Positions 341 through 36,192 are shown, counted from the stretch's first letter. The stretch: 64,000 bases of DNA from Francisella tularensis subsp. holarctica (GCA_945860585.1 CAMARA010000003.1:368-64367); one strand, 5' to 3'. A program made the numbers and translations. Notes: generated by a model not told the origin, from the letters alone.

Positions 341-1255
341 CTAGCAACTTAGTTCAATACTGTTTTTCAAAAGCTGAAAAACATCCAAGTGATAGCTCAC
401 CATGATTGCGACAGACCCAAAAACTATTAACATCATAAGACTAGGGGATAAAAAGCTTTTATACGGATTTTTTGCTAAACTTATACAATGCATACGACCA
501 GAAAAAATCAACCGCTCAAGTAAAATTAGATCACATTCTATTTGATCAAAATCACTGCCATACAACCCTGCACTGTTAGACGTAAGCTCTATGAGCGGCT
601 TAACACCTTTCTCAGACGGCACCTTGATCTGCACAAATGGCACCTTATCTACCATATTTTTTAGTGCCTTCATGGCTTCAGGCTCGATTGTAGCCAAGCC
701 ATAAAAAGTAGCCGTTTCTTGTAGTTGATTTAACTTCTTAGTTGCTCTTTCCAAATCAAATTGTAGCACCTCTCCTAAATTGCAAAAATCCTCTTCTTTT
801 CGAGATCGAGATGTAGAAAAGTTTTTTAAAACTCTCATTTTTTGCGTACATGTTGAATCGCTAACCTTTGACTTATCTAATATTTCAAAAAATTTATTTT
901 TAAAGTTAGTGATTTTCTGCATCTTAATCATCTCCTCATTAAATTTTTCCTTCAAAGAAAATAAATAAGAACGAAAAGCGCTTATCTCCAAATATATGGC
1001 CTGTAGAGATTCCATTTTTTTTCTTGACTTTGGAATAAAATCTATAAAAAAAGATAAAATAACACCAGAAATAACACCTATAAGCATTTCTCTTGCCATG
1101 TCACCTAACTTAAAGACAACCAAAATAGCAAATAATAGAATAAAAGAGAGTGCCAAAAAAGGTTTTGCTTTTATCTCTTCCAAATAATAACCAATACGCG
1201 CGAATTCCCTGCTTAAATTACGGAAAACCTTCTTCCATCTGTAAACAAAATTCAT
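341..1255 (-). CDS. Hypothetical membrane protein, AT-rich island cargo
   Basis: 304-aa ORF with hydrophobic segments near the N-terminus (FLALSFILLFAILVVF, LIGVISGVILSFFIDFI) and the C-terminus (LMMLIVFGSVAIMVSY). It is very AT-rich compared with the flanking genes. I recognise no family. Confidence 0.5.
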   Translation of the reverse strand: MNFVYRWKKVFRNLSREFARIGYYLEEIKAKPFLALSFILLFAILVVFKLGDMAREMLIGVISGVILSFFIDFIPKSRKKMESLQAIYLEISAFRSYLFSLKEKFNEEMIKMQKITNFKNKFFEILDKSKVSDSTCTQKMRVLKNFSTSRSRKEEDFCNLGEVLQFDLERATKKLNQLQETATFYGLATIEPEAMKALKNMVDKVPFVQIKVPSEKGVKPLIELTSNSAGLYGSDFDQIECDLILLERLIFSGRMHCISLAKNPYKSFLSPSLMMLIVFGSVAIMVSYHLDVFQLLKNSIELSC

Positions 1256-1271: not shown

Positions 1272-2459
1272 TCAATTTTTATCTCTAAGCTGCGTTAGAT
1301 AATCCCCCCAAGCCTGCATCATCCGCCTCCTCTCAGGCAAATACTCCGCATAATTATAAGTCGCCCGAATCTTATCCCGCTCACCATGCGCAAGCTGGCG
1401 TTCAATCGCATCACGATTCCAGCCCTGCTCATTGAGCAAAGTCGAAGCCATTGACCGAAAGCTATGACTAGTGATCTCATCGTTCGTATAACCCATCCTA
1501 CGCAAGGCGCAATTGAGGGTATTGTCAGACATGGGGCGATCAAGATAGCGAATGCCGGGAAAAAGATACTTTCCTCCGCCTGTCAGCGGCCTCAATTCTT
1601 CCAGTATCGCAATCGCTTGCGTGGACAGGGGTACAATATGCATCTCGCGCATTTTCATTTTTTCGGCAGGGATTCGCCATTCTTTGGTTTCAAAGTTGAA
1701 CTCTGACCATTCGGCTTGCCTCAACTCTCCAGGGCGTACGAAGAATAACGGAGCTAAGCGCAATGCACAGCGTGTGGCAAAATAGCCCTTGTATTCATTG
1801 ATGGCTCGCAGAAGGTGGCCGATTTCTGTTGGATCGGTGATGGTGGGGAAGTGGCGCTTTTCTTCTGGTGCCAGGGCTCCGCGTAAATCGGCGGCGATAT
1901 CTCGTTGTGCTCTGCCTGTTGCAAGGGCGTAACGGAAGACTTTTCCGCAATGCTGTAGCGTACGATGCGCAACGCCTAAGGCGCCCCTTGCCTCGACTCT
2001 ACGGACTACGCTTAAGAGTTCTGGCGCGGTGATATCAGTGATCGGGCGCTTGCCCAGCCAGGGAAAGACATTCTTTTCTAAACGACCCATGATCTTTTTG
2101 GCGTGCTTTTCTGTCCACGTGGATAAAAACTTGATATGCCATTCACGAGCAATCGTTTCAAAATTATTTTCAGCGGCGAGCAGCAAGGCGTCTTTAGAGC
2201 TTTTTTTGGCTGCAATGGGGTCGATGCCTGAAGCTACCAGTTTACGTGCTTGATCGCGCTTTTCCCTCGCCTCTGCCAGCTTAACATCGGGATATACCCC
2301 TAAAGCAAGTAGCTTTTCTTTTCCCAGGAAGTAATATTTCAAACGCCAATACCTGGAACCGTTTGGGTGGACAAGGAGGAACAAGCCTTTTTCGTCTGAA
2401 AGTTTGTAGGCTTTCTCCAGAGGCTTGGCATTCCGTATAATCAAGTCATTGAGTGGCAT
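1272..2459 (-). CDS. int: P4-type (DUF4102 arm-binding domain) tyrosine integrase
   Basis: N-terminus MPLNDLIIRNAKPLEKAYKLSDEKGLFLLVHPNGSRYWRLKYYFLGKEKLLALGVYP is the typical P4/CP4-57 integrase arm domain. The C-terminal catalytic region contains HSFRSMAST and HGERDKIRATYN. I prefer the start at ATG 2459, which has GGAG 9 nt upstream, over the ORF-track start at 2507. The gene lies next to the 3' end of tRNA-Asn. Confidence 0.9.
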   Translation of the reverse strand: MPLNDLIIRNAKPLEKAYKLSDEKGLFLLVHPNGSRYWRLKYYFLGKEKLLALGVYPDVKLAEAREKRDQARKLVASGIDPIAAKKSSKDALLLAAENNFETIAREWHIKFLSTWTEKHAKKIMGRLEKNVFPWLGKRPITDITAPELLSVVRRVEARGALGVAHRTLQHCGKVFRYALATGRAQRDIAADLRGALAPEEKRHFPTITDPTEIGHLLRAINEYKGYFATRCALRLAPLFFVRPGELRQAEWSEFNFETKEWRIPAEKMKMREMHIVPLSTQAIAILEELRPLTGGGKYLFPGIRYLDRPMSDNTLNCALRRMGYTNDEITSHSFRSMASTLLNEQGWNRDAIERQLAHGERDKIRATYNYAEYLPERRRMMQAWGDYLTQLRDKN

Positions 2460-2621: not shown

Positions 2622-2697
2622 TGGCTCCCCGAACTGGACTCGAACCAGTGACCCAATGATTAACAGTCATTTGCTCTACCAACTGAGCTATCGGGGA
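2622..2697 (-). tRNA. tRNA-Asn (anticodon GTT)
   Basis: The reverse complement reads TCCCCGATAGCTCAGTTGGTAGAGCAAATGACTGTTAATCATTGGGTCACTGGTTCGAGTCCAGTTCGGGGAGCCA. It has a 7-bp acceptor stem, a GTT anticodon in a CTGTTAA loop, GGTTCGAGTCC in the T-arm and an encoded CCA. Confidence 0.93.
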
Positions 2698-7099: not shown

Positions 7100-7226
7100 G
7101 GCGAATTATCCTCTTGAAAGAAAAAGTGCTGCAAGTGTACCATCAAATCACATGTTTGTCTAAGAGCAGGTTGCTGGAAACGCGCTGAGGAATCAGGATT
7201 CGCGCGGTCATTTGTCGCAGCCAGAT

Positions 7227-9734
7227 TTATAGCTCCGCCAGCGCTTCCTTCTCTGCCCCTTGAGTTTTAGGGGGTGTTGATGCGAACGGCGTAGTGGTCG
7301 CAGTCACTGCTTTTGGTATTTTTACCCCTAGTGCTCTGATCTGTGCTCGAATTGCTTTGTCTTTGATGGGGGCTCCAGGTGTAGCAATAAGCAGTTCAAT
7401 TGCGGGAATATTTTTCTTGTAAATGGCTAGTGTTAAAGGGTTGTGCATTGCACCTGAATACTGTTGCCAATCTATTCCTGCTTGACAAAAGAAAATTAAA
7501 ATTTGCTGTTTATTCATGTCAACAGCCGTGTAAACAGGATCTAGAATGGGCGAGCCGTCGATAATCACTGCATTATGCATGGCAAATCCATTTTCCATTA
7601 AGAGTGTGGCAAAATGAACTAAATTATGTTGTGCTGCTAGAGTCATGAGTGTTATGCCATTTTCTTCTTTTACATCAATCGGTAGATTGCATGCCCTCGT
7701 ATTATTTAATAGCGACATAAAAACGGCCCTGAATTGGAGTTCGGGAAGTGGGGTGGCTGCATGTCGCGTCACAAGATATGTTACCAACAGCATTCCATAT
7801 GTATTCTTTAAGTGCAAATTTATAATTTCTGGATATTTTTCATGAAAATAATTAAATATTTCCAGGCTTCCCTGAAAATATTTTCGGTAAAAACAAGCGG
7901 TAAATGCGATCTTAAAATGTTTTGTGTTTTTATCAGATGCTAGAAGTGCCAGGCTTCTAATGAGGTGCACAAGGGAATGTCCGCCCTCCCACTCCCAAAC
8001 GGGTATACTCTTTAAAAATTTTATTGACGGTTGCAGTTTTGGATTTGCAGAGGATATAAGAACTTGAAGATTGTTTTCTGTCATGCCTGTTTGTTCTAAA
8101 AAATACTTGAAATAAGCGCTTTTTAAATGTGCCTCTAGAGAAGTTGTCATAGATGTGCTAGGTTCAAATACTAATGTGCGCGAGGTTGATATAGATATAG
8201 CCCAGCTATGTCCCTCAGGAATAAGAGGATCATATAAAATAAGTTGGTAAATGCCCGGGGGTAACGTTAATGTATCTTGATGAAGATTTTTAAAAGTGCC
8301 ACGATGTACAAGCACAAATTGTTTGATAACGTATTCAAACAGTCTTTTGGAAACGATAGCTGGAGAGTCTCCAGAAATAATAGTGCCATCTTTCAATGTG
8401 AGTGCAATTGGATTTTTTCTATCTAAGTGATTAAAAAGAGTCTCAAGCAGGGGGTGTGTAAAATGAATGTCTGATTGATAATGATTTCTCAGTAGGTAGT
8501 CCATTAGGCTTAGCAGCCGTCTTTCTACTGCAGGAAACAATGATGCAAGTGGATGCTTGATTTCAGGAATGAGGCTGCTTGACGCCTGGCCAGTAGACGT
8601 TAAATAAGCCTCTTTAAGTTCCTGATATGTGCTGTCTGGAAGGAATATTTTTAAAATGGAATGCGCGACACAGTCCCCAGGATGATTTGCAACATAAGCT
8701 CTTCGGATATAATACATAGCGTGTGTACGATCTTTTGTATCAATTTTAAAGAGATCTGTTGGAGGCGTCCGAGCAGGGGGTGTTGTAGCCATAGGTGCTG
8801 TGGCAAATAGAGCGCTGGCTAATCTGTCTAAAATAGTGGGGGCAGCAGAGGGTGCCAAGTCGAGACTGGCAGCTGCATCTTCAGTGGGTGGGGCAGTGGG
8901 TACATCAGGAAAAAGCGACGCGCTGGTGACGGTCAATCCACTTTCTTCTAAACGTGCGGCACAGGCTTCACGCAAAACGCGATCGTCATGAGGGCTGGTG
9001 AGGTGTACTTCTGTTTCTGAAATGGCATGTATGTCTAAGGTTTTTGTTTCGCCCGTCGTTGGATCTGTAAAAGTTAAACTAATGCCGTCTTCTGTTTCTG
9101 CTTTGTAAGCAAGTCCACAGGCTGTGGGGAGTGCTTTTTCTGTGAATTCAGGCCATTGAATTTGTAATTCACCGGCTTCATCCACACTGACGCGCGGAAT
9201 GAATTGGGCGGGTAACCGGGCCAGCGCGGCCAGCCAGGGTTTTAGAAATTGATATTCAGGGCTCAGTGTTTTCATAAATTGCTCTGCCAGTGTCGTGGCA
9301 ATGGACGGTGCAAAGTATGTTGCTGTCATGAGTCCGGCGCCTTTTAACGCACCCCAGACGCCCTGTGTGACTAAATTAAATCCTAGGCTTGCATGGCTGT
9401 AAAGCGCAAAACCTTTGGTGGCAAGGCCAATGAATTCTTTAAACAGGCTGGCGGGTCTGACACTATACTCCTCTAAATAGTCGCAGTCTGCATCTGTAAT
9501 CTCCCTACCTAGGAGTGCTAATTGAGTGTATATCCTGGCATGCCTTGTCATGCTGAATGCCATTGGTTCCGGCGCTATTTTATTTAAAAAAACATTCACT
9601 ACAGCAGCAATAGAAAGGAGTGAAGGAGGAGTGCCAAAAAATTTATTGGCGATGGCCATGCTTGCCCCTATTTCTGCGAGTGCAGCAGCGAATTCATTCG
9701 GGTCTGGTGTGGAGGGTTTGGTGGCAGTGTGCAT
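7227..9734 (-). CDS. Large ankyrin-repeat protein, candidate translocated effector
   Basis: 835 aa. The C-terminal part (about nt 7335-7667) has ankyrin-like repeats (GITLMTLAAQHNLVHFATLLMENG..., DPVYTAVDMNKQQILIFFCQAGID..., NPLTLAIYKKNIPAIELLIATPGA). The extreme C-terminus is glutamate-rich (GAEKEALAEL). The gene is AT-rich and breaks the usual hisS-yfgM neighbourhood. Confidence 0.8.
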   Translation of the reverse strand: MHTATKPSTPDPNEFAAALAEIGASMAIANKFFGTPPSLLSIAAVVNVFLNKIAPEPMAFSMTRHARIYTQLALLGREITDADCDYLEEYSVRPASLFKEFIGLATKGFALYSHASLGFNLVTQGVWGALKGAGLMTATYFAPSIATTLAEQFMKTLSPEYQFLKPWLAALARLPAQFIPRVSVDEAGELQIQWPEFTEKALPTACGLAYKAETEDGISLTFTDPTTGETKTLDIHAISETEVHLTSPHDDRVLREACAARLEESGLTVTSASLFPDVPTAPPTEDAAASLDLAPSAAPTILDRLASALFATAPMATTPPARTPPTDLFKIDTKDRTHAMYYIRRAYVANHPGDCVAHSILKIFLPDSTYQELKEAYLTSTGQASSSLIPEIKHPLASLFPAVERRLLSLMDYLLRNHYQSDIHFTHPLLETLFNHLDRKNPIALTLKDGTIISGDSPAIVSKRLFEYVIKQFVLVHRGTFKNLHQDTLTLPPGIYQLILYDPLIPEGHSWAISISTSRTLVFEPSTSMTTSLEAHLKSAYFKYFLEQTGMTENNLQVLISSANPKLQPSIKFLKSIPVWEWEGGHSLVHLIRSLALLASDKNTKHFKIAFTACFYRKYFQGSLEIFNYFHEKYPEIINLHLKNTYGMLLVTYLVTRHAATPLPELQFRAVFMSLLNNTRACNLPIDVKEENGITLMTLAAQHNLVHFATLLMENGFAMHNAVIIDGSPILDPVYTAVDMNKQQILIFFCQAGIDWQQYSGAMHNPLTLAIYKKNIPAIELLIATPGAPIKDKAIRAQIRALGVKIPKAVTATTTPFASTPPKTQGAEKEALAEL

Positions 9735-9851
9735 TTAATTTATTTCTTTTTATAAAGAAGGAAGCATATTATAATAATATAAATATGTCAAGAGCCTCTT
9801 GCAAGAGGGGTGGTTTGCCCTAGGTTTGCCCTGCATGCCCGAAACTGGCAT

Positions 9852-9880
9852 TTGACAATTTTTGCATTTTGCGGTAGTAT
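9852..9880 (+). promoter_or_regulatory. Putative sigma70 promoter for the small secreted ORF / chaperone-like operon
   Basis: TTGACA (9852-9857), a 17-nt spacer, then TAGTAT (9875-9880), about 40 nt upstream of the ORF at 9918. Confidence 0.45.
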
Positions 9881-9917
9881 TGTCTTGTGATAGTTCCTAA
9901 AATAATAATAAAGAGGT

Positions 9918-10130
9918 ATGGTCATGAAAAAAAAAATAGCACTTGGTTGTTTTTTGTTTGGTTTTGCTTTTGTTATATCGGGTAAAGCAGTGCTTGAAGC
10001 ACCTGCTCATGGACAGGCTGTTGTTGTTTCTGATGGTGTTACGCAAGTGTGTACTTTGGATCCAAAAGGCCTGTGTCAAAGCCTGCAAACGGATACAAAT
10101 CATGATGATGTTGGCGTATTTTTGCCTTAA
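9918..10130 (+). CDS. Small secreted protein (70 aa, signal peptide, two Cys)
   Basis: MVMKKKIALGCFLFGFAFVISGKA is a signal-peptide-like N-terminus. An AGAGG Shine-Dalgarno lies just upstream. It is co-oriented with the 255-aa chaperone-like gene and immediately upstream of it. Confidence 0.5.
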   Translation: MVMKKKIALGCFLFGFAFVISGKAVLEAPAHGQAVVVSDGVTQVCTLDPKGLCQSLQTDTNHDDVGVFLP

Positions 10131-10177
10131 GGCAAAGTCTATGTTAAAATAGGCGAATTATAATAAAGGTTTTGTTT

Positions 10178-10939
10178 ATGCGTTGGCGTGCTGGGTTTGT
10201 TTTATGCGGGTTTTTGGCCACAGCTTTGGGCGATTCTAATGCACCTGGATATTTGGCTATGGATTTTTCTGTGCAAACTCCTGGGTCTGTCTTTGCGATG
10301 CAGGATCCCTTAGTCTTAAGGTATCAGGTCAAAAACAATATTGCCAATTCAGTGACGTTGAGTGTTTTTACAAAATATTACCCGCTGGCCCAGTCTGCTC
10401 TTTTTGAAGGCGATAAACAAATCGAAAAAAGTAATGATGTTGATTTAAATCTAGCTCCAGTCATTACACTGACTCCTACGCAATTGACAGTGCCGCGTGG
10501 AGCAACCGAAACTGTGACTGTGACGATTCACCCTACGCAGGAAGAATTAGAGGTTAAAAAAACGTATCGTGGGTATATTGTATTTCAGGAGCAGGCAGCC
10601 CCTCCTGCAACAAGTCCTGTTAATTATCGTCAAATTGCATCTATTTATGTGAATACAGGAAAGCCTGATTTTGGGTTGTTGCAAATTAGTTGCAAAGTTT
10701 TCGGCGCACCTGGCCACATTCAGTTTAATATATTAAACAATTCTGATTATGTGTTTAGTCCCGAAGTTGCTGTTTCTGATGCTGTGGGTCATCCGCTTTT
10801 TAATAGTAAGTTGATGCCTGTGATTCAAAAGACTTCAGCTACGCGATTTTTAAGTTGGAATGAGCGTGTGAAGGGGCCTTATTCAATCATCTTGTCTATG
10901 CCAGATCATTCTTGGCAAAAAACCTATATTTGTGAATAA
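10178..10939 (+). CDS. Periplasmic two-domain chaperone-like protein, paralog 3 (PapD-like by motif)
   Basis: Signal peptide MRWRAGFVLCGFLATALG. Domain 2 has the motif ILNNSDYVFSPEV and a Cys pair (QISCKV ... TYICE), both shared with the ORFs at 14580-15377 and 10943-11851. ATG 10178 with an AAAGG RBS is preferred over TTG 10172. Confidence 0.6.
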   Translation: MRWRAGFVLCGFLATALGDSNAPGYLAMDFSVQTPGSVFAMQDPLVLRYQVKNNIANSVTLSVFTKYYPLAQSALFEGDKQIEKSNDVDLNLAPVITLTPTQLTVPRGATETVTVTIHPTQEELEVKKTYRGYIVFQEQAAPPATSPVNYRQIASIYVNTGKPDFGLLQISCKVFGAPGHIQFNILNNSDYVFSPEVAVSDAVGHPLFNSKLMPVIQKTSATRFLSWNERVKGPYSIILSMPDHSWQKTYICE

Positions 10940-10942
10940 TAC

Positions 10943-11851
10943 TTAAGAACCACTTTTAACCTGGTTGTGAATGGTATTTTTAAGTGGTTTTTTAACTTTA
11001 CTTAATTTCGTTGCTTTAACCTTTGGCAGAGGGGTGTAAATGCAATTAATCATCGTATGAATTGGTTTGGTTTCATAATGCATGGCCCAAGTCAATTGAG
11101 TTTGCTGTGTTGTAATTGTTTTTGCACTTACTGTTGCTGGCAATGTCATGTTACGTATCGCATCACTGTATGGTAGTACAGAGCCTGGATTGTTATCCAA
11201 GACCACCCCTGGTTGCCCTGCAATACTGACTTGATAATAAGGGGAGAATACATATGCGGTAGGGTTGTGAATGTTTAAGCGCATTGCCCCATTGGGCATG
11301 ATGTGACATTCGACGGTAATAGGGCTGTAGTTAGCTGTGCCATTTGAAATATATACACTAGTAATCGATTGCACATTATAGCTTAATACAATGCCTGCGC
11401 TTTGCTTTTTAGTTTTTTTAGATGATGTTTTCATTTTTGGGGCGGAGGATGCAAATTGAATATTTTGATAATAGGTTGCCGGTAAAAGAGTGTTGGGTAA
11501 ATCTAAATACATGCCGACAACCTCAAATTGATGGGGGGGCAGTACAAAATGCATGGGATAGTAATGTACATAGGGTGAAAGATCTAAATTAATTTTAGCT
11601 TTGCCAGGAAGGGAGCGGTCTACTTGGAAAAGAGCATTTTTGATGCCTGGAAACACTTTTCTAGTGCTCACATCTACTTGCTGAGGAGTAGTGCCGGGAT
11701 TGTTCACCACGAAAGCATAGCCTATGTGCGTTGGTGCTTGCACTGTTAAAAAGAAAGGCTCTGGTGTTACATTGACCGTATTGATAACGGTCTTTGCGAA
11801 TGCAGCAGGCGTGCAACAGATGAGCAAAGCAAAAAAAGCAATTTTATTCAT
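10943..11851 (-). CDS. Periplasmic two-domain chaperone-like protein, paralog 2. It is the last gene of the fibre operon and could act as a tip or adaptor component.
   Basis: Signal peptide MNKIAFFALLICCTPAAFA. It carries the motif IHNPTAYVFSPYY, a Cys pair (TVECHI ... INCIY) and a lysine-rich C-terminal tail. Confidence 0.55.
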   Translation of the reverse strand: MNKIAFFALLICCTPAAFAKTVINTVNVTPEPFFLTVQAPTHIGYAFVVNNPGTTPQQVDVSTRKVFPGIKNALFQVDRSLPGKAKINLDLSPYVHYYPMHFVLPPHQFEVVGMYLDLPNTLLPATYYQNIQFASSAPKMKTSSKKTKKQSAGIVLSYNVQSITSVYISNGTANYSPITVECHIMPNGAMRLNIHNPTAYVFSPYYQVSIAGQPGVVLDNNPGSVLPYSDAIRNMTLPATVSAKTITTQQTQLTWAMHYETKPIHTMINCIYTPLPKVKATKLSKVKKPLKNTIHNQVKSGS

Positions 11852-11859
11852 GATTTTCC

Positions 11860-14589
11860 TTATTCTTTTAGTTGGCCCACTGTATTCTTGTCAAAATTAA
11901 TAATGACATTGGATACCCACGATGTATTATTTGGAACTATAATTCTAAATGGACCTTCCGGTTTTTGCAAGCCCGTAAAGGTAATATTATACGTCCCTGG
12001 AATCAAACTTTGAAAGGAGAAATAATTTTGATTGGCAAAAATAGTGCCGTTTATGATGGGTCCAATTGGTTGAGAGTCAATTTTTTGGATTTGAATGCCT
12101 ATTTTTTCTGGAAGAGGGTCATTTGACTGAATATAGCCATCCATGCCTGTGGCGACAGTAATTTCGGGATTATATTCTAGTTCAGCGCCTGGAGTGAGTT
12201 GCATATTAATATTGTTGGTCGTGGGCATAAGAGAGGGGTCTAAAGTAGATAAATCAATCGAAAATTTGACTGGTGTATTGGCTGGCACGCCGATTATACT
12301 AAAATAGCCATCCTCGTTACTGGTTGCGCTTGCAGTTCCAGCTGTGACCACTACCCCTGACAAAGGCGTTGCAGGGGCACCATTGACGCTGGGACTCATT
12401 AATCGGCCAGAAATTTCCCCACTTCCAAAGTCTTTAACTGTATTGACTGTGGCGCCGATTAATTTGAGGGCATCATTAAATGTTAGCTGTAATGAAATTG
12501 ACTGAATAGAATAATTTAATGAGAGTGCCCAATTGGGGTTAGGGTTCCAGCCCAGCCCTACAGTCAATGTATAAGTTGGCTGGCCAATAATTTGCTCCCA
12601 TTGCAAATTTGTATTCCAGAGGCCATTTTGTGGGCGATAGCTATAATTTAAGTTGGTTGTGTCTTCGGTATCATTGCCACTCATTGTTTGAATGGTATAA
12701 CTATATTGTAGATAACTGTTGCCATATACAACAGAATTTAAAAAAGTTTGTGTTGAGCTTACACTATCGCCATTGTTGGTGGCTGTTGTGCCAGCAATGT
12801 TATTGCTTGCAGTCCCGCTTACAGTGCGCATAAATTGATATCCTGGATTTAAAAACCAAAAAGCTCGATAGTTGGTTCCTGTGCTAATGCTTTGCAGTCC
12901 TGGCGTAGATTGAAAGCTTGTTGAAATCCCTAGTTTTGGGAAAACACTCCAGCTATCCGATAGATTAAAATTATTTGTTTGTAGGGTTGAAGATTGGCCT
13001 GTAGGGGTATATATAGGGATTTGCAATAGTGATGAGTTGGGTGTCAAATGGGTGTAAGTCATTTGAATCGTATTGCTTGGAATCCATGTGCTAATGATGT
13101 TAAAATAGTAATTGCTTAAGCTATCAAGCATTTGTGAGTATTCTGCAGCTAAGCCAGGTGAGAGCTGCCAGCGAAAATCAAAATAATTAAAAAAACTATA
13201 TACCGTATCATAAGGATTGATCGTGCTTAAATCATTGACGGGGAAATAAAATCCACCATACCCTACGGTAAAATTGTTAAAGAGGCCATATTGATATAGC
13301 CATTGGGTGAGATTTCCTAATTGTCCATATCCAGATAAAGGTTGTAATTCACCTGTGCTCAATGCATAGTTACTTTGACTTTTTGCTAAAACGCCGATGT
13401 TGCCTGAAGCATAAGTGATGGAGCGTGTTTCTGAGGTGCCATCTGGATAATAATATGTGATTGCATAGACATCTCCAGGTGTTGCTTGATTGTCGGTAAT
13501 TGTATATTTACCGCTGCTATCTACAGTAAAGCTGCTGACTAGGTACGAATTATTTCGCCAAACTTGAATTTCTGTGTCAGGTTGAGTTTGTCCCTGATAT
13601 GTAAAGGTTAGCACAGATTGATTACTTTCAGGTAGTTTTTGTACTAATATGCCATTGGTTAAGCTTTGTTGTGGAAAAAATGGTGAGTTAATGCTTTGAA
13701 CATAGCCAAATTGTAGGGTGTTGATATTGGGGAGATTATTAAATGCATAGTTCCAGGTAAAATCTCCGTTTAATAGCCCCCCCCCTCCTGCAGAGGATGG
13801 ATTGCTGTAAATATTTTGAGATCCAGAAGCTGAAATCGTGCCTTTAAATAACGACCCTAGTAAATTAAAGTTGCCATTCAAGTTGCTGTTTGGTTGCCCA
13901 CCAGATGAATCCAGGGGCTGAGTATAATTTTCGTTTAAGGAATAATAGATTTGGCCTGAAGGAGCGAAGCCACTGCTAATGACTGGTTCTGCGGCTTGTT
14001 CTAGTGCTTTTTTTTGAGCCAGCATTTGCGCATTTAAAGCCGCTTGAGCTGAAGCAGCTCTTTTTTTCGCTGCAATACTTGCGGGTGAAAGAGGCAGGGT
14101 CGTTTTTAAGATAGATTGCAGTGGGTTCCAGTTAGTTTCAGGGTTGAGTTTGGTAAACAGTGCTGCAGAAATCCACCAAGAACCATTGTCAAAAACTAAA
14201 TCTGTTGACGAAAAAACAATAGATTGCTTTTTTTTATTTAAAATATATTGAATAGTATGGTCAGTTGGATTGATGATTAGGCTGGAGCCAGGTGGTCTTG
14301 ACTCTAAATCACAGATAGATTGTGCATCAGTGCAACCTTTTGCGACTTTAAATTCTAGTATGTTACTGTAAAAGTCAAGTATGTCCAGATAGGGATGGCC
14401 TTCATCATCCATTACTGTCGGGTGGGCCAAATCAGAGAAAAAAACCGTATCCTGCCCAGAAATATATACATCTAATTCAATCAAGCCTGGGGATAGCGCC
14501 CCTTGTAGTGAAGCGACGAACAAAAGGAGGGTTACAAGTAAGCCCCCTTTGTTGCATAATTTCATTAACACATTGTTTGCTATTGACAC
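11860..14589 (-). CDS. Large outer-membrane usher-like protein
   Basis: 909 aa with a signal peptide. A long central region is rich in aromatic/Gly/Ser/Asn alternating beta-strand-like sequence. Two C-terminal beta-sandwich-like segments follow (GEISGRLMSP...SGVVVTAGT...NEDGYFSIIGVPANTPVKFSIDL and DGYIQSN...IPGTYNITFTG). It lies between chaperone-like genes, the same position an usher holds in Csu/archaic chaperone-usher operons. Confidence 0.55.
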   Translation of the reverse strand: MSIANNVLMKLCNKGGLLVTLLLFVASLQGALSPGLIELDVYISGQDTVFFSDLAHPTVMDDEGHPYLDILDFYSNILEFKVAKGCTDAQSICDLESRPPGSSLIINPTDHTIQYILNKKKQSIVFSSTDLVFDNGSWWISAALFTKLNPETNWNPLQSILKTTLPLSPASIAAKKRAASAQAALNAQMLAQKKALEQAAEPVISSGFAPSGQIYYSLNENYTQPLDSSGGQPNSNLNGNFNLLGSLFKGTISASGSQNIYSNPSSAGGGGLLNGDFTWNYAFNNLPNINTLQFGYVQSINSPFFPQQSLTNGILVQKLPESNQSVLTFTYQGQTQPDTEIQVWRNNSYLVSSFTVDSSGKYTITDNQATPGDVYAITYYYPDGTSETRSITYASGNIGVLAKSQSNYALSTGELQPLSGYGQLGNLTQWLYQYGLFNNFTVGYGGFYFPVNDLSTINPYDTVYSFFNYFDFRWQLSPGLAAEYSQMLDSLSNYYFNIISTWIPSNTIQMTYTHLTPNSSLLQIPIYTPTGQSSTLQTNNFNLSDSWSVFPKLGISTSFQSTPGLQSISTGTNYRAFWFLNPGYQFMRTVSGTASNNIAGTTATNNGDSVSSTQTFLNSVVYGNSYLQYSYTIQTMSGNDTEDTTNLNYSYRPQNGLWNTNLQWEQIIGQPTYTLTVGLGWNPNPNWALSLNYSIQSISLQLTFNDALKLIGATVNTVKDFGSGEISGRLMSPSVNGAPATPLSGVVVTAGTASATSNEDGYFSIIGVPANTPVKFSIDLSTLDPSLMPTTNNINMQLTPGAELEYNPEITVATGMDGYIQSNDPLPEKIGIQIQKIDSQPIGPIINGTIFANQNYFSFQSLIPGTYNITFTGLQKPEGPFRIIVPNNTSWVSNVIINFDKNTVGQLKE

Positions 14590-15377
14590 GCGACAGTATG
14601 TTTGCTTAAGCCAGGTAAAGTCCAGTTAAGAGAGTATGTGCCCGTTTTGCCCTCAGCTGCTAAAAGTAGTCGCGTGCCCATGGAGTAAGGTAACAAGGGC
14701 TGTGGAGTTAGTGTCGCTACAGTTTGGTCATTTTGTACGAGGGTGACGTCGGGCCTAAATAAGTAAGATGTATTATTTTTCACGAGCATATTAAGTTTAC
14801 CGTCTGCGCCAATTTTACAGCTTACTTCCGCTTTATCGGCATTGCCTGTGCCATTATTTAAGTAAATATTATAGTTTAGCCCTACTACAATACTTGCAGC
14901 AGCTTGAGACGCGCCTTTAGGTTGTTCTTGACTATTCAATTGAACAGGAGCTGATTTTGGAGCTAATTTTAATGAGAGAAAATAAGTTCCATCAGGCAGA
15001 TTAGGCGGTCTTTTTATCATAACGCGCAAAGTGCCACTTTGTCCTGCTGGCATGACCAATATTTTAGGCGTGAAAATCATCTGGTTGTTAAGGTTGATAT
15101 ATTGATAACCGTTTTCTAGTGGCAGCGCGGTGTCAGAGGCATATCCGCCTTTTCCGGGTTCAAGAGAGTCACTCCCTGCGGATGTATAAATCGCTTGTTC
15201 TTTGCCTGAGTTGATGACTTGTAATAAAACTCCGCTCAATGGATTAAAAGGAGAGGTGGTGACAGGCGGTGCAATTTGAAAGCCCAAAGAGCTTCCGCTA
15301 TCTGCTTCAGTAGCTATGCCACATAATGGCATTGTCAAGGTGCAGAGGATGACTGACGAGATGAGTTGTTTTTTCAT
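14580..15377 (-). CDS. Periplasmic two-domain chaperone-like protein, paralog 1
   Basis: Signal peptide MKKQLISSVILCTLTMPLCGIA. Domain 1 has FTPKILVMPAGQSGTLRVMIK ... YFLSLKLAP, which resembles PapD-like chaperones. Domain 2 has VKNNTSYLFRPDV (compare NPTPYYV in classical chaperones). The Cys pair is EVSCKI ... TVACQ. Confidence 0.62.
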   Translation of the reverse strand: MKKQLISSVILCTLTMPLCGIATEADSGSSLGFQIAPPVTTSPFNPLSGVLLQVINSGKEQAIYTSAGSDSLEPGKGGYASDTALPLENGYQYINLNNQMIFTPKILVMPAGQSGTLRVMIKRPPNLPDGTYFLSLKLAPKSAPVQLNSQEQPKGASQAAASIVVGLNYNIYLNNGTGNADKAEVSCKIGADGKLNMLVKNNTSYLFRPDVTLVQNDQTVATLTPQPLLPYSMGTRLLLAAEGKTGTYSLNWTLPGLSKHTVACQ

Positions 15378-15862
15378 GATGAAGATTCTCCTGTTGGTAA
15401 TTCGTTAATTTGAACTGAAAATGCACCCTGATAATAACCAGAGCGATGCCCTGAGATGGTCAGCTGTGCGCCGATGTTAAAGTCACAATATCCTTCGCCT
15501 CCTATTGTACAGGTATTATTAGGCTGATTAGAAGTAAACTGGCTCAGTGTGGCAGATTGCTGATTGACGGCATAGAGTGGGGTAGCTTCATTAAAAGATA
15601 ATTGAACGGTGCTACCTGGTGTGTCAAAAACACGTAATAGAGCGGCATGTTTGGTTCCTGCTGTCGTTACATTGTTGGGTAATCTTTGGTCTCCATTTGG
15701 GCTGAGTTGGATTGCGTCAGAGCCGATCGCTCCAACGCCATAGATAATCATGCCAAACTGGAGTGGATTTAGAGTTTGATTGCTGAGCTCTGCTTGAGCA
15801 GGTAGGGTGAGTACAGTCAGCATAAGTGTGCTGCAGCCAAGTCGAAGTAAATACGTTAACAT
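15374..15862 (-). CDS. Small secreted fibre subunit-like protein (DUF4402/SCPU-like by pattern)
   Basis: 162 aa with a signal peptide ending in AQA. It has the LQFGMI motif, a Cys pair (NNTCTIGGEGYC) and the C-terminal GYYQGAFSVQI motif, all shared with the two upstream paralogs. An ATGA overlap links it to the chaperone-like gene. Confidence 0.6.
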   Translation of the reverse strand: MLTYLLRLGCSTLMLTVLTLPAQAELSNQTLNPLQFGMIIYGVGAIGSDAIQLSPNGDQRLPNNVTTAGTKHAALLRVFDTPGSTVQLSFNEATPLYAVNQQSATLSQFTSNQPNNTCTIGGEGYCDFNIGAQLTISGHRSGYYQGAFSVQINELPTGESSS

Positions 15863-16449
15863 TAGTTTACTCCCATAATTAAATCCAGAGCATTATTGTT
15901 ATCATAATGATCTGCTACTGTCGTGGGGGGGATGGTAAGCACTCCTCCTAAATAAAGCACAACTTGTTGGTTGTGTGCAACAGCGCTGCTGACATTGCTG
16001 GTGATTGGGATATAGCGATCTCCTCCGTCAAATAATATAGAATGGCTTTGAATATCTGTAATGTTCAGCAATTGTTGATGCTGTTCTCCAATTAAATAAG
16101 ATTGATTTGCAATTCCTGTTATTGTCACTGTGAGTCCATTTTCTACTTGAAGTAAAATTTTTGCAGGTGAAGATTCGAATGTTTCAGCACCATTATTGCA
16201 AATTGTTTGTACTGCATTAAACCCTGTGGTGCGGGCATCAAGTACACAAGTGGTGGGTTGATTGGCCTGCTTATTTAGTGCTATTTTGCCAAAATTGATC
16301 ATGGTTTGGCTTGCGGCAGCATTGTATGCAATTGTATTCATAATTTCAGCCGTTGCAGTAATGACAATCGGCAAGCCTAAGGCAATATGTACTCCTAGGC
16401 TATCAAGAATACACAGTATCGCAAACTGTTGCAGTTTTTTCATCGTCAC
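15862..16449 (-). CDS. Small secreted fibre subunit-like protein
   Basis: 195 aa with a hydrophobic N-terminus, the INFGKI motif, a Cys pair (TTCVLD...TICNNG) and the C-terminal DHYDNNNALDLIMGVN. Confidence 0.55.
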   Translation of the reverse strand: MTMKKLQQFAILCILDSLGVHIALGLPIVITATAEIMNTIAYNAAASQTMINFGKIALNKQANQPTTCVLDARTTGFNAVQTICNNGAETFESSPAKILLQVENGLTVTITGIANQSYLIGEQHQQLLNITDIQSHSILFDGGDRYIPITSNVSSAVAHNQQVVLYLGGVLTIPPTTVADHYDNNNALDLIMGVN

Positions 16450-16473
16450 TCACCCTAGATAGACGTGCTTACG

Positions 16474-16510
16474 AAAAAAAGCGCTACGACAAATTTAACT
16501 TGCGTAGCGC
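16474..16510 (-). terminator. Rho-independent terminator/attenuator after the putative major subunit gene
   Basis: The minus strand reads gcgctacg (8-bp stem), a 14-nt loop, cgtagcgc, then TTTTTTT. It lies 45 nt downstream of the stop at 16555. Confidence 0.6.
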
Positions 16511-16554
16511 TGTGTGCTCTCAAAAGCTTAGAGGGCATCTTTTAGCAGTCTAAA

Positions 16555-17142
16555 TTAGTTGACTGTTGCAGAGACGGTAATTGCATCGTTGTTTTTGTAG
16601 ACGCCACTTGGAGTTCCCTCTGGGATGCTAACTGTTCCGCCAATTTTTACGGTTACCAGATGCGTGGAGTCAACAGTAACTGCGTCTGCATTTGCTCCTG
16701 TGGATGAATTGGTTGTAACTGTAGAGGAGTTATTAACAAGTGCAGTAATATTGGATAATACCAGTGGCGATGCATCACCGACTTCTGGGGCTAAGTTTGA
16801 GTTAGTTAAGGCAACAGTCACTGTAACTGAAGAGCCTGGAGTAGCGTTAAAAGTAACCGATCCAGCGTTTACACCTACTGTTGCAGCAGTGGCGATCCCC
16901 GTGCAGGTTTCTGCTCCAAGTATACTTACGGTGCAGGCTGTTGTTGAGTAAGCTTGGCCTGCACTCATAATCATGTTACCGAAATTCAAGTTGCTATCAG
17001 TGCCAGTGTGGCCGATAGTATTGCTGACTTGAGCGCTGGCGCCAATAACAGCGCTATCGCTATTGTTAGCAGCAAATGCAGCTCCGGTACTCATGCAGGC
17101 TAGAATTGCGGTTGTAATTGCGATTTTTTTAAATTGATGCAT
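16555..17142 (-). CDS. Putative major fibre subunit (DUF4402/SCPU-like by pattern)
   Basis: The preferred start is ATG 17142 (MHQFKKIAITTAILACMSTGAAFA signal peptide, GGAG RBS). It has the LNFGNM motif, a Cys pair (TACTVSILGAETC) and the C-terminal GVYKNNDAITVSATVN. It is the first gene of the operon and is followed by a terminator, as expected for a major pilin. Confidence 0.62.
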   Translation of the reverse strand: MHQFKKIAITTAILACMSTGAAFAANNSDSAVIGASAQVSNTIGHTGTDSNLNFGNMIMSAGQAYSTTACTVSILGAETCTGIATAATVGVNAGSVTFNATPGSSVTVTVALTNSNLAPEVGDASPLVLSNITALVNNSSTVTTNSSTGANADAVTVDSTHLVTVKIGGTVSIPEGTPSGVYKNNDAITVSATVN

Positions 17143-17194
17143 TTTGAATCTCCATTTGGTTTTTGTTGTGTATGGGTTAACAGCCCATAGAGCT

Positions 17195-17223
17195 AATCTA
17201 GTTTTTTTATGTGTTAATGTCAA
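17195..17223 (-). promoter_or_regulatory. Putative sigma70 promoter of the fibre operon
   Basis: The minus strand reads TTGACA (17223-17218), a 17-nt spacer, then TAGATT (17200-17195), about 50 nt upstream of ATG 17142. Confidence 0.45.
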
Positions 17224-17385
17224 TGGTTTTAATTTGCTTTATGTTTGCTTTGTGTTGGGTTGTGTTGTTTTTTATTTTAAATCAATTACTTATTTTTTTT
17301 TTCTTTTTTGTTTTGGGATTTTGTGTGGCTTTGTGGTGACGTTTTTAGCGCTCTAAAACATCGATTTTTTTGATTTGTTTTATGA

Positions 17386-35259: not shown

Positions 35260-36192
35260 ATGCGCAACAAACACGATTATTATTTCAAATCCTTGATGAC
35301 AAAGCAGGCCTTTTTTGAGTCATTTATCAAAACATATCTGCCTAAAGAATGGCTGGACCGTTTGGATTGGTCATCGATTCAGTTATATAAAATGAGTGGT
35401 AAGCATCGTTCTGAGAAACTGCACAAAGAGTTTGAGGCAGATGTGATTTATTTGGCGCGTTTTGCTGATCAGGAGTGTCTGATCTGGTTTCATTGCGAAC
35501 ACCAAACGACTCCGGATCGACTGATGACGCTGCGCACGGTGAATTATCAATCTGCCGAGCTACTGGGCTATGCAGAACAAAACCCACAAAAACCGTTGCC
35601 GACAATTATTACCCTGATTTATCATCAAGGCAAGCGGCCCTGGCCTTATAGTATGCGCTTGGAGGATTTGTTTGCTGAGCCACATCTGGCGATGAAATAT
35701 TTTGGTCAGCCTATTTTGATTGATCTGCCCCTGATTCCAGATGAACAATTGCGTCAGCACAACGGCATCGGCCCGGTTGAGATGGTTCTCAAGTACGTAC
35801 GTCGTAAAGAATTTAAAACAAACATGCGAATCTTGTTGACTGAACTTCAGTCAGTGGATGACACTTTGCGTTCAATTGTGATAGAATATCTCATCGAAGC
35901 GGTAGATGTTCCAGATCTGGTAGCAGTAGCCACAGAGTGTTTACCTAACGACAAGGAGGTCATTATGACAGTTGCAGAACAATTAATTAGACGTGGTGTT
36001 CGGCAAGGAATGCAGCAAGGCATGCAGCAAGGAATGCAGCAAGGCATACAGCAAGGCATGCAGCGGGGGATGCAAGATGGAATTTATCTGGTTGCAAAGA
36101 ATTTGCTAGAAAATGGTTCAGAAGTTTCCTTCGTAGCGAAGTGTACGGGCTTATCTACAGAGATTGTTACACGTCTTCGTGGCGCTCAGTAA
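35260..36192 (+). CDS. Rpn-family recombination-promoting nuclease / YhgA-like putative transposase (PD-(D/E)xK), intact copy
   Basis: 310 aa. HDYYFKSLMTKQAFFESFIKTYLP...EFEADVIYLARF...IWFHCEHQTTPD is the Rpn/Transposase_31 signature. The C-terminus has AEQLIRRG, a QGMQ repeat region and AKNLLENGSEVSFVAKCTGLS. Confidence 0.85.
   Translation: MRNKHDYYFKSLMTKQAFFESFIKTYLPKEWLDRLDWSSIQLYKMSGKHRSEKLHKEFEADVIYLARFADQECLIWFHCEHQTTPDRLMTLRTVNYQSAELLGYAEQNPQKPLPTIITLIYHQGKRPWPYSMRLEDLFAEPHLAMKYFGQPILIDLPLIPDEQLRQHNGIGPVEMVLKYVRRKEFKTNMRILLTELQSVDDTLRSIVIEYLIEAVDVPDLVAVATECLPNDKEVIMTVAEQLIRRGVRQGMQQGMQQGMQQGIQQGMQRGMQDGIYLVAKNLLENGSEVSFVAKCTGLSTEIVTRLRGAQ
36004..36075 (+). repeat. 12-bp tandem repeat (6 units) encoding (Q-G-M-Q)n inside the Rpn gene
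   Basis: caaggaatgcag / caaggcatgcag / caaggaatgcag / caaggcatacag / caaggcatgcag / cgggggatgcaa. The stand-alone module has about 4 units and the downstream pseudogene copy about 1. Confidence 0.85.

Follow-up and report, generated by a model that had tools for sequence, protein, structure and literature searches.

The locus analysed here very probably codes for a machine of the chaperone-usher type, which would build a thin surface fibre out of DUF4402 subunits. The subunit, chaperone and usher genes are clustered in one operon, both in the window (the whole stretch of 64,000 nucleotides that was analysed) and in 14 of 15 further loci, and structure models predict usher and chaperone folds for the encoded proteins. 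Open reading frames and gene calls confirm the minus-strand order given in a preliminary description of the locus, namely subunit A, terminator, subunit B, subunit C, chaperone 1, usher and chaperone 2 (Table 1), with neighbouring genes from subunit B through chaperone 2 overlapping or being separated by gaps of at most 14 nt. The two chaperone-like proteins of that description are both present, but the two plus-strand genes in the range 9918-10939, a third chaperone paralogue and a 68-residue secreted ORF, had been missed.

Table 1. Features of the locus, with positions counted from the first nucleotide of the window
Feature	Position	Strand	Remarks
Accessory island	7166..17385	.	Whole cluster plus 835-aa ankyrin-like gene; between rmuC and yfgM-like gene
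Small secreted ORF, 68 aa	9924..10130	+	Upstream of chaperone 3; signal peptide; called as gene
Chaperone 3, 253 aa	10178..10939	+	Third paralogue, convergent with chaperone 2; alignments, gene call
Chaperone 2, 302 aa	10943..11851	-	Paralogue of chaperone 1; Lys-rich 35-aa C-terminal tail
Outer-membrane usher, predicted, 901 aa	11860..14565	-	AF2 model, Foldseek, hhalign
Chaperone 1, 265 aa	14580..15377	-	Predicted two-domain PapD-like periplasmic chaperone; AF2, Foldseek, hhalign
Subunit C, 162 aa	15374..15862	-	DUF4402; without N-terminal extension; mature ELSNQTLNPLQFG
Subunit B, 193 aa	15862..16443	-	Paralogue of A; N-terminal extension LPIVITATAEIMNTI
Intrinsic terminator or attenuator, candidate	16473..16511	-	Between subunits A and B; 14-bp GC-rich stem plus U7
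Subunit A, candidate major pilin, 195 aa	16555..17142	-	Signal peptide, ~31-aa N-terminal extension, DUF4402 domain
Sigma-70-like promoter, predicted	17195..17223	-	TTGACA-17-TAGATT; upstream of subunit A, below A-rich tract; consensus scan, 10/12 matches

The 68-residue ORF is preceded by a promoter-like TTGACA-17-TAGTAT sequence at 9852-9880 (consensus scan). Its mature product of about 46 residues has one Cys pair and no Pfam match, and it is uncertain whether it belongs to the fibre system.

The predicted usher and its chaperones

The 901-residue protein (909 residues when translated from an upstream GTG instead of the ATG) had been put forward as a putative usher, and FimD and PapC are by far its best structural matches. 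In the AF2 model (pLDDT 85.8, pTM 0.72), a signal peptide is followed by an N-terminal domain (residues 25-157), a charged or Ala-rich helix (162-192), a barrel (203-703) with a plug sandwich (319-384), and two C-terminal domains (716-804 and 806-891). The top 17 Foldseek matches in the PDB are all FimD or PapC structures, aligning over the full length with E values of 7e-29 to 8e-14 and TM scores of 0.44-0.55. The published usher plan has a barrel of 24 strands, interrupted by the plug between strands 6 and 7. DSSP assigns to the model an N-terminal domain, 6 long strands, a 6-strand sandwich, 18 long strands, and two sandwiches, so that the modelled order matches this plan, with the predicted plug after strand 6. 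The region that hhalign aligns with FimD, HtrE and EcpC (E 2.5e-5) comprises the first barrel strands plus the plug.

The Ala-rich linker noticed earlier, AAKKRAASAQAALNAQMLAQKKALEQAAEP, is present in the usher sequence. A charged helix of about 30 residues between the N-terminal domain and the barrel is conserved in the family, which has 120 members among 1.84 billion proteins; we know of no such helix in described ushers. The two carboxypeptidase-like sandwiches reported for the C-terminus are found as well, but they occupy the usher CTD1 and CTD2 positions rather than replacing FimD-type domains. The Pfam Usher model (PF00577), which does detect archaic ushers, finds no match in the window usher and matches 1 of 50 family members (E 8.4e-5). 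Remote family ushers show weak CooC_C matches in the first C-terminal domain.

The Pfam matches of the window usher are confined to CarboxypepD_reg (E 1.2e-6, below the cut-off), SdrD_B and Big_6. Some TonB-dependent receptors also have a CarboxypepD_reg domain at their N-terminus, and TonB receptors and porins appear in the Foldseek list, so the protein might be imagined as an unrelated outer-membrane protein (TonB-dependent receptor, porin or autotransporter) surrounded by unrelated small secreted proteins. We regard this as extremely improbable: the receptors and porins reach E values of 2e-8 or worse and TM scores of 0.15-0.26 (0.2-0.26 for the TonB receptors), far below the usher matches; TonB_dep_Rec, Plug and Autotransporter domains find no Pfam match; the sandwiches are C-terminal, as in ushers; and synteny with a PapD-like chaperone is kept in the 14 loci mentioned above. 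A TonB-dependent receptor or autotransporter identity is thus disfavoured. The preliminary description had named such an identity, together with non-Ig chaperones, as the outcome that would speak against it; the opposite was found, with the FimD/PapC match on one side and an Ig-like chaperone model on the other.

The 265-aa chaperone 1 is indeed modelled as a two-domain, Ig-like PapD-type chaperone, with moderate model confidence (pLDDT 69.2, pTM 0.63). Its best Foldseek matches are almost all chaperones of chaperone-usher systems, the top ones being CupB2, FimC, Caf1M, PapD, SfaE, DraB and YadV (E 5e-9 to 5e-7, about 240 columns), and hhalign against E. coli chaperones gives an E value of 1.3e-4. 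The model has a long, low-confidence F1-G1 loop (residues 144-165), followed by the G1 strand IVVGLNYNIYL. The loop is also long in chaperone 2 and short in chaperone 3. The paralogues agree in P, Y, G and N positions and in a pair of Cys residues (C187-C264, in domain 2). Chaperone 2 is found by the family HMM with an E value of 6e-105, its sequence being itself part of the training set of the model.

A proline in strand D1 is invariant across chaperone-usher chaperones (PMC4654587), and the aligned P104, which corresponds to FimC P52 and EcpB Pro60, is present in 13 of 13 family members. Non-classical chaperones also have a conserved Arg about 29-30 residues past this proline (CsuC/EcpB Arg89), which anchors the subunit C-terminus (PMC4654587). 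Family position 133 (P104 + 29) aligns with EcpB Arg89 through FimC, a mapping that depends on the alignment. Seven of the 13 members have Arg there, chaperone 3 (YRGYI) among them; chaperone 1 has Phe and chaperone 2 has Tyr.

By sequence, chaperone 1 scores 12.1 bits against PapD_N (PF00345), under the cut-off of 23, whereas a homologue found by the family HMM at 2e-28 (locus L015) passes it with 25.6 bits, and the UniRef name of another homologue is [quoted passage not shown]. EcpB is the sole pilus chaperone found in the PDB sequence search (E 0.15), and the family HMMs miss FimD, HtrE, EcpC, FimC, YadV, EcpB and EcpE at E <= 1. The earlier impression of a cluster built from unfamiliar parts therefore holds, in that the window proteins have no significant PF00577, PF00345 or SCPU matches and carry the public names "hypothetical" or "carboxypeptidase regulatory-like".

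DUF4402 subunits and candidate transcription signals

Subunits A and C match DUF4402 (PF14352) with 31.4-32 bits and 56.2 bits (E 7e-15), respectively, both above the Pfam gathering cut-off of 25.2 bits. Subunit B has no Pfam match of its own and aligns with subunit A at 33% identity. Across the loci, 21 of 23 subunits match the DUF4402 model, and none of the 23 matches SCPU (PF05229) at E <= 1, so that of the two families proposed earlier, DUF4402 is upheld and SCPU is not. Because SCPU membership is unsupported, the term Csu-type describes an analogy and not a family assignment.

The [LI]-[NQ]-F-G-x-[IM] motif and the C-terminal strand that had been reported as shared are confirmed in all three subunits, as LNFGNM and GVYKNNDAITV in A, INFGKI and DHYDNNNALDL in B, and LQFGMI and GYYQGAFSVQI in C; the subunits across the loci all end in G-x-Y-x-G-x-x-T-x-x-V-x-Y-like strands. 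The single Cys pair described for each subunit is likewise found in all three mature proteins, but its placement differs, lying in the N-terminal third of A and B and in the C-terminal third of C, the latter being the position seen in most related subunits.

The region between the signal peptide and the LxFG motif separates the subunits further. The distance from the cleavage site to the motif is 9 aa in C versus 26-31 aa in A and B, and the extension of A, SAVIGASAQVSNTI, has alternating hydrophobic residues. Among 21 subunits from 9 loci, with cleavage sites judged by eye, extension length is bimodal (8-9 versus 18-31 aa), and six loci have one extension-less subunit each. The alternating-hydrophobic extensions, the one extension-less subunit per locus and the conserved C-terminal strand are consistent, as sequence features, with a donor-strand scheme, and subunit C is a candidate for the tip or first-in subunit. 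A two-domain adhesin is absent from the locus, and our literature search found no mention of DUF4402.

Subunit A is flanked by its own promoter-like site and a candidate terminator behind the gene. Its true start is the ATG at 17142, with a GGAG ribosome-binding site ahead, and not 17223. The RNA of the 95-nt terminator stretch (16462-16556) folds with -30.6 kcal/mol (z -3.53), and 0 of 200 shuffled sequences are equally stable.

Comparison with known chaperone-usher systems

Classical pili (E. coli type 1 FimA-H with FimC/FimD; P pili with PapD/PapC) have the usher architecture predicted here, in which an N-terminal domain and a barrel with its plug after strand 6 precede a pair of C-terminal domains, and they also resemble the locus in the two-domain chaperone with its invariant D1 proline and in the terminator after the major-subunit gene. 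They differ in sequence, with about 12-14% identity in the structural alignments. Furthermore, the A1 strand in the alignment of the chaperone family shows no evident conserved anchor of the Arg8/Lys112 type, the subunit profiles resemble neither Fim/Yad pilins nor EcpA at domain level, and the locus has no lectin-domain adhesin.

The operon logic is shared with archaic (sigma) pili, such as A. baumannii CsuA/B-A-B-C-D-E, P. aeruginosa CupE and Myxococcus Mcu, where the major subunit also comes first, followed by minor subunits, chaperone and usher. In both, the subunits are small beta proteins of one domain that have a Cys pair and a G-x-Y strand at the C-terminus, and in the chaperone family here Arg is frequent at the position that aligns with Arg89 of non-classical chaperones (PMC4654587). 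The locus could accordingly be a very divergent archaic member without a clade of its own, with DUF4402 as a diverged offshoot of the SCPU pilin fold. A remote DUF4402 subunit from L015 with weak, sub-threshold SCPU similarity (E 0.0074; 17.1 bits versus a cut-off of 22.4), the CooC_C matches of remote ushers and the EcpB hit also point in this direction. We nevertheless consider this reading unlikely. Archaic subunits belong to SCPU, which none of the 23 subunits here matches; PF00577, despite its reach to archaic ushers, and PF00345 fail to pick up the usher and the chaperone; and the family HMMs miss the known ushers and chaperones listed above. The locus also differs from archaic systems in the conserved charged helix of its usher and in its three chaperones, and in place of a two-domain CsuE-like tip protein the candidate tip is a single-domain protein lacking an N-terminal extension.

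The alternative systems (E. coli common pilus EcpA-E; CS1/CFA-I CooB/CooC) resemble the locus in having multiple chaperones in an operon (EcpB and EcpE) and a YYR/YR motif at the position aligned with Arg89, in addition to the weak CooC_C and EcpB matches. They differ in that no sequence match to EcpB, EcpC or EcpE is significant, EcpA is unrelated by profile, and no EcpD-like large adhesin is found here.

The F1-G1 loops of chaperones 1 and 2 recall FGL chaperones such as Caf1M of Yersinia pestis (Caf1M/Caf1A/Caf1), which is among the best structural matches of chaperone 1. The fibre would also probably be thin and made of one main subunit, as in FGL systems. By sequence, however, Caf1M is a member of the classical family, the chaperones here have their Cys pair in domain 2 and not at the F1-G1 hairpin, and the locus encodes several subunit types, one without an extension. 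FGL chaperones build non-rod polymers. The usher-like pore and its chaperones might thus export DUF4402 proteins that make no pilus at all but stay monomeric on the surface or form a coat or a layer resembling a capsule, comparable cases being the Mcu spore-coat system of Myxococcus and the F1 capsule, which is amorphous; the small, single-domain subunits and the missing adhesin domain would suit such a role. This appears improbable, since most subunits carry an extension of donor-strand length and one per locus does not, as expected for an ordered linear polymer with a defined tip. As donor-strand polymers also make up the Caf1 capsule and the Mcu coat, it is also a variant of the main explanation rather than a true alternative to it.

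The TLP-1a/b environmental fibrils described by CryoSeek are formed by unannotated secreted bacterial proteins through N-terminal donor-strand exchange, with no genes or assembly machinery assigned to them (PMC11494351). They are no more than a lead here, as no link by sequence turned up: a PDB search with the subunit profile retrieves none of these chains at E <= 10.

Genomic context and proposed assembly

In 14 of the 15 other loci (for one of the 14, judged from the gene table only), a chaperone-like gene adjoins the usher-like gene just upstream, with DUF4402-type genes nearby; in the exception, L014, no chaperone was detected. Loci with the cluster include Coxiellaceae MAGs and replicons of Vibrio parahaemolyticus and V. 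campbellii. The system is part of a conserved but unannotated family and is not unique to this genome. The V. parahaemolyticus cluster is annotated "hypothetical", and the V. campbellii record has no gene entries at that place.

In the window, which comes from an organism represented only in metagenomes, the cluster lies on an accessory island. A close relative (L021, with a Der protein in the same 90%-identity cluster) has rmuC and the yfgM-like gene 58 bp apart, without the island, and its flanks align on either side of the insertion. The cluster, described before as AT-rich, does have a lower GC content (0.410 versus 0.476 in the rest of the window), but the difference is moderate, with 9 of 284 equal-sized windows being lower; the island of about 10 kb has a GC content of 0.41-0.43. 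The adjoining gene at 7227-9734, described as effector-like, exists and has a weak ankyrin match (E 0.002).

For the fibre machine, we infer donor-strand complementation and exchange, a subunit order, a chaperone-subunit pairing and actual fibre production, as follows. Subunits A, B and C would be exported by Sec, and in the periplasm each would be captured by a two-domain PapD-like chaperone, whose G1 strand would fill the groove left by the missing last beta-strand of the subunit (donor-strand complementation). With three chaperone paralogues and three subunits, the pairing is probably one to one. The complexes would dock at the periplasmic N-terminal domain of the usher, subunit C, without an N-terminal extension, entering first and ending at the tip. 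The N-terminal extension, of about 13 residues, of each incoming B or A would then displace the chaperone strand (donor-strand exchange), and the plug would move aside before the growing chain threads through the barrel. Subunit A would be produced in excess, owing to its own promoter and the attenuating terminator, and would form the shaft.

The locus and about 100 relatives (in Coxiellaceae MAGs, other uncultured Gammaproteobacteria, V. parahaemolyticus, V. vulnificus and V. campbellii) may represent a further, undescribed chaperone-usher class, a proposal that we make tentatively, with DUF4402 pilins, a charged-helix usher and a single-domain tip without a donor strand. If so, DUF4402, a family without a known job, would gain a function, and some of the unassigned donor-strand fibrils in environmental cryo-EM could be products of such systems. 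In this genome the system has three chaperones, possibly one per subunit. Since its island places it beside the gene of an ankyrin-like protein and the bacterium is of the Dot/Icm type (IcmF-encoding), the system may serve attachment to a eukaryotic host.

Gene layout and sequence-family searches

The cluster at 9918-17223 very probably encodes a chaperone-usher-type fibre system. Eight genes were counted in this region, and the products of all eight have an N-terminus that reads as signal-peptide-like. The genes from subunit B to chaperone 2 overlap or lie at most 14 nt apart, and the start of subunit A was placed at an ATG preceded by GGAG, with an upstream TTG of the raw ORF being rejected. 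The 95 nt surrounding the hairpin behind subunit A have a predicted folding energy of -30.6 kcal/mol (z -3.5), which none of 200 shuffled sequences equalled. The minus-strand gene set of the preliminary description stands, and every motif that it quoted was found in the cluster proteins, but it left the two plus-strand genes undescribed. The first of these, the small secreted ORF, lies just upstream of the chaperone 3 gene, has its own promoter-like site, and encodes a clear signal peptide followed by a mature part of about 46 aa with one Cys pair. It has no match in Pfam and may act as a mini-subunit or pair with chaperone 3.

Genes of the cluster and segments of the predicted usher model (component names are putative)
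Feature	Position	Strand	Remark
Subunit A	16555-17142	-	195 aa; first in transcription order
Hairpin + U7	16473-16511	-	between subunit A and subunit B genes
Subunit B	15862-16443	-	after hairpin
Subunit C	15374-15862	-	after subunit B
Chaperone 1	14580-15377	-	265 aa
Usher	11860-14565	-	901 aa
Chaperone 2	10943-11851	-	302 aa; last minus-strand gene
Small secreted ORF	9924-10130	+	68 aa; converges on chaperone 2 gene
Chaperone 3	10178-10939	+	253 aa; converges on chaperone 2 gene
Usher signal helix	N-terminal end		predicted model
Usher beta N-terminal domain	residues 25-157		predicted model
Usher long helix	residues 162-192		predicted model
Usher six long strands	residues 203-309		predicted model
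Usher six-strand sandwich	residues 319-384		predicted model
Usher eighteen long strands	residues 398-703		predicted model
Usher two beta sandwiches	residues 716-804 and 806-891		predicted model

In the Pfam search, subunits A (31.4 bits) and C (56.2 bits) pass the DUF4402 cut-off of 25.2 bits and subunit B has no match. The usher protein yields only sub-threshold matches to CarboxypepD_reg, SdrD_B, and Big_6, and chaperone 1 matches PapD_N with an E value of 0.19. The NCBIfam search of the cluster proteins found nothing, and when the usher, the three chaperones, and the three subunits were used as queries, word-indexed searches of 5.8 billion proteins gave back nothing beyond the window's own proteins. 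PDB sequence searches with single proteins and profiles gave no significant usher, chaperone, or pilin match, the best pilus-related one being EcpB (E 0.15). As far as sequence models go, the remark in the preliminary description that the cluster is built from unfamiliar parts thus holds. Relatives came to light only when 1.84 billion cluster representatives were scanned exhaustively with HMMER, which recovered 120 usher relatives (54 below 1e-30), most of them 800 to 1000 aa long and many aligned nearly over their full length at 22 to 32% identity.

Predicted structures of the usher and the chaperones

The AlphaFold2 model of the usher, built on an alignment with 50 relatives, has a mean pLDDT of 85.8 and a pTM of 0.72. 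The Foldseek search of this model against the PDB places FimD/PapC ushers at ranks 1 to 17 (E 7e-29 to 8e-14), with full-length alignments and TM scores on the target of up to 0.55. TonB-dependent receptors and porins follow at E values of 2e-8 or worse and TM scores of 0.15 to 0.26, so that the usher-like match lies far ahead of the TonB-dependent receptor that the preliminary description had set against its own reading.

The PapC/FimD usher plan comprises a 24-strand barrel with a plug between strands 6 and 7, an N-terminal domain, and the C-terminal domains CTD1 and CTD2. The strand order predicted for the 901-aa protein is that of the published plan, and on the model the protein is an usher. 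The usher-family profile aligns with FimD, HtrE, and EcpC over the first barrel strands and the plug (E 2.5e-5, 75% probability). Two C-terminal carboxypeptidase-regulatory-like segments, which had been described as standing in place of usher domains, are indeed present, but they occupy the CTD1 and CTD2 positions in the model and are thus the predicted usher C-terminal domains in a transthyretin-like guise. Likewise, the Ala-rich “coiled linker” exists, and in the model it is a helix joining the N-terminal domain to the barrel. Its length of about 30 residues is kept in all 50 relatives, and its composition is rich in Ala, Lys, and Gln in the window and in Lys, Arg, Glu, and Gln among the relatives. 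To our knowledge, a helix in this position has no counterpart in described ushers.

The three putative chaperones are paralogues with 21 to 26% identity and have Pro, Tyr, Gly, and Asn positions and a Cys pair in common. The model of chaperone 1, built from 13 sequences, is of moderate confidence (pLDDT 69, pTM 0.63). Its structural matches in the PDB are almost all chaperones of chaperone-usher systems (CupB2, FimC, Caf1M, PapD, SfaE, DraB, YadV, and FaeE; E 5e-9 to 5e-7), aligned over both domains and about 240 columns, which agrees with its earlier designation as chaperone-like and makes it, as modelled, a two-domain PapD-like chaperone. The sole internal low-confidence stretch, residues 144-165, is a loop ahead of the strand IVVGLNYNIYL; by position, these are the predicted F1-G1 loop and G1 donor strand. 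The F1-G1 loop is also the main difference among the three chaperones, being long in chaperones 1 and 2 and at least 13 residues shorter in chaperone 3.

The hhalign comparison of the chaperone family with FimC, YadV, EcpB, and EcpE (E 1.3e-4) pairs FTPKILVMPAGQSGTLRV with VTPPLFAMKGKKENTLRI and thereby places the family-invariant P104 on FimC P52 and EcpB Pro60, a proline reported to be the one residue that never varies among chaperone-usher chaperones (PMC4654587). Arg89 of CsuC and EcpB is the hallmark of the non-classical chaperones (PMC4654587). The corresponding family position, P104 + 29 in this alignment, is Arg in 7 of 13 members, including chaperone 3, with chaperone 1 having Phe there and chaperone 2 Tyr, suggesting a partial, alignment-dependent signature of this type. 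An origin of the family within or near the non-classical chaperone-usher systems is a possible but less likely alternative.

Searched with the chaperone-family HMM, the more distant locus L015 yields its chaperone at 2e-28. This protein lies above the Pfam PapD_N cut-off, and a homologue from a SAR324 MAG carries the UniRef name pili assembly chaperone N-terminal domain protein, so that the PapD-like assignment is transitively supported. A candidate counterpart of the third chaperone in locus L003 (7411-8127) was rejected, as it could not be aligned. The last 35 residues of chaperone 2 form a Lys-rich tail (YTPLPKVKATKLSKVKKPLKNTIHNQVKSGS), which is absent from the other chaperone paralogues and from all homologues examined. 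By analogy with the EcpB/EcpE pair, one chaperone per subunit would be a reasonable guess.

Subunits and proposed fibre assembly

Subunits A, B, and C are paralogues of one another, and DUF4402 is found in 21 of 23 subunit-like proteins across loci, bearing out the family that was first proposed for them. The spore coat protein U (SCPU) superfamily, proposed as the other possibility, did not hold: none of the 23 proteins matches SCPU at E <= 1, and a separate check left a sub-threshold trace in one remote subunit. Subunit profiles compared with Fim/Yad pilins and EcpA aligned over the signal peptide and N-terminus only. The conserved C-terminal strand follows a G-x-Y-x-G-x-x-T-x-x-V-x-Y-like pattern.

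With cleavage sites judged by eye, the subunits fall into two groups by the spacing between their signal peptide and the first conserved strand ([LI]-x-[FL]-[GP]). Most have 18 to 31 residues there, and in each of six loci exactly one subunit has 8 to 9, subunit C being one of these. Hydrophobic residues alternate in the extra N-terminal segment (SAVIGASAQVSNTI, LPIVITATAEIMNTI, and TLTVNAEI), the length of which would be right for a donor strand. Such a bimodal pattern is expected if every subunit except the distal one donates a strand. Two comparison loci, L006 (10932-11471, plus strand) and L008 (6777-7337, minus strand), carry beyond the usher gene an extra subunit-like gene without the N-terminal extension. 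Its product has Cys-rich insertions and a C-terminal Cys, has no equivalent in the window, and may be an alternative tip protein.

From the fold, sequence, and synteny data, we infer that the subunits would most likely be exported by Sec, taken up by the PapD-like chaperones through donor-strand complementation, and handed as chaperone-subunit complexes to the N-terminal domain of the usher. Subunit C would start the fibre and end up at its tip, donor-strand exchange would add subunit B and then many copies of subunit A, and the growing chain would leave through the usher barrel. The promoter-like site ahead of the subunit A gene and the hairpin after it would let subunit A be made in excess, an arrangement shared with other pilus operons. 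A thin and flexible fibre, not a rigid rod, is suggested by the long F1-G1 loops together with the absent adhesin domain.

Distribution, genomic context, and classification

We compared 15 other loci, one of them known from its gene table alone, without DNA. In 14 of the 15, a chaperone-like gene (218 to 286 aa) adjoins the usher-like gene just upstream, and the DUF4402-type genes, one to four in number, are found upstream or, in three Coxiellaceae MAGs, downstream; in the fifteenth, L014, the chaperone was not detected. The named hosts include Coxiellaceae, an Ectothiorhodospiraceae MAG, a SAR324-labelled MAG, and the large replicons of Vibrio parahaemolyticus, V. vulnificus, and V. campbellii. 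The V. parahaemolyticus locus (L019; NZ_CP062152.1, 158823-162980) has the order DUF4402 gene, second subunit, chaperone-like gene, and usher-like gene, which are annotated as a “DUF4402 domain-containing protein” followed by three entries of “hypothetical protein”. The V. campbellii locus (NZ_CP050465.1) shows the same arrangement in a record without genes listed there, and that of V. vulnificus (NZ_CP015514.1) was seen as a tblastn match only. Elsewhere in public records, the proteins are called either “hypothetical” or “carboxypeptidase regulatory-like domain-containing protein”. Our literature search found no paper naming DUF4402 or PF14352 and none on Coxiellaceae and chaperone-usher systems. 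CryoSeek TLP-1 fibrils were considered as a possible product of DUF4402 systems, and no link could be shown.

In a close relative (GCA_947476405.1, locus L021), rmuC and a yfgM-like gene are separated by 58 bp. The window carries an insertion of about 10.2 kb at this site (roughly 7166-17385), with the flanks aligning on both sides, and the insert holds an 835-aa ankyrin-like gene and the entire fibre cluster. The GC content of the insert is 0.41 to 0.43, versus 0.476 elsewhere, and no relatives at 90% identity were found for the usher, chaperones 1 and 2, the three subunits, or the 835-aa neighbour. Together, these features identify the fibre cluster as an accessory island. Housekeeping proteins of the window have relatives of at least 90% identity in MAGs labelled Gammaproteobacteria bacterium. 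An integrase-bearing tRNA island was rejected as the cluster's home: the cluster is inserted in the rmuC/yfgM-like intergenic region, and the integrase, at a distance of about 5 kb from it, lies beyond the tRNA. This tRNA gene (2625-2697, minus strand) and the adjoining phage-type integrase gene (about 1272-2459, minus strand) at the window's left end probably mark the edge of a separate integrated element extending leftwards, away from the cluster.

The 835-aa protein (7227-9734, minus strand), encoded on the same island as the fibre genes, has linkers rich in Pro, Thr, and Ala and matches ankyrin weakly at its C-terminus (E 0.002); it resembles an effector aimed at eukaryotes. In a low-GC patch, a 223-aa protein (53195-53866, minus strand) has an F-box just over the Pfam cut-off (21.4 versus 20.5 bits) and resembles eukaryote-like effectors of Legionella-type bacteria. 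A 1073-aa IcmF/TssM-like protein (58305-61526, plus strand) with IcmF-related_N, IcmF-related, and IcmF_C domains indicates that the organism has a secretion system of either type IVB (Dot/Icm) or type VI. The window also encodes a CBU_0585/lpg0581-family protein; taken with the IcmF-like and F-box proteins, it suggests an intracellular way of life like that of Legionellales. Beside a low-GC stretch at 37-39 kb lies a YhgA-like putative transposase (Transposase_31, E 2e-30; 35260-36192, plus strand).

By architecture, the usher and chaperone, as seen in predicted structures, and the operon correspond to a chaperone-usher system; the sequence-family definitions PF00577 (Usher) and PF00345 (PapD_N) do not recognise the cluster. 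The cluster differs from the archaic (Csu) class in lacking the SCPU subunits that define it, and we therefore do not class it as Csu-type. We regard these loci as a conserved, unannotated chaperone-usher family with DUF4402 pilins, to which the window locus belongs as an expanded case carried on an island.

Chaperone-usher pili are major adhesins, biofilm factors, and drug and vaccine targets, and their census rests on Usher, PapD, and pilin HMMs. The family escapes these models and is consequently labelled “hypothetical” even in complete V. parahaemolyticus genomes. The basic mechanism is already known, and the novelty does not lie there. Variants worth study are the helical linker of the usher, the several dedicated chaperones, the partial non-classical Arg signature, and a single-domain candidate tip subunit without a donor strand, and the Vibrio locus offers a culturable, genetically tractable test system. 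Recognising the family would give DUF4402 a function and would widen the chaperone-usher repertoire to Coxiellaceae-like intracellular bacteria and marine Vibrio.
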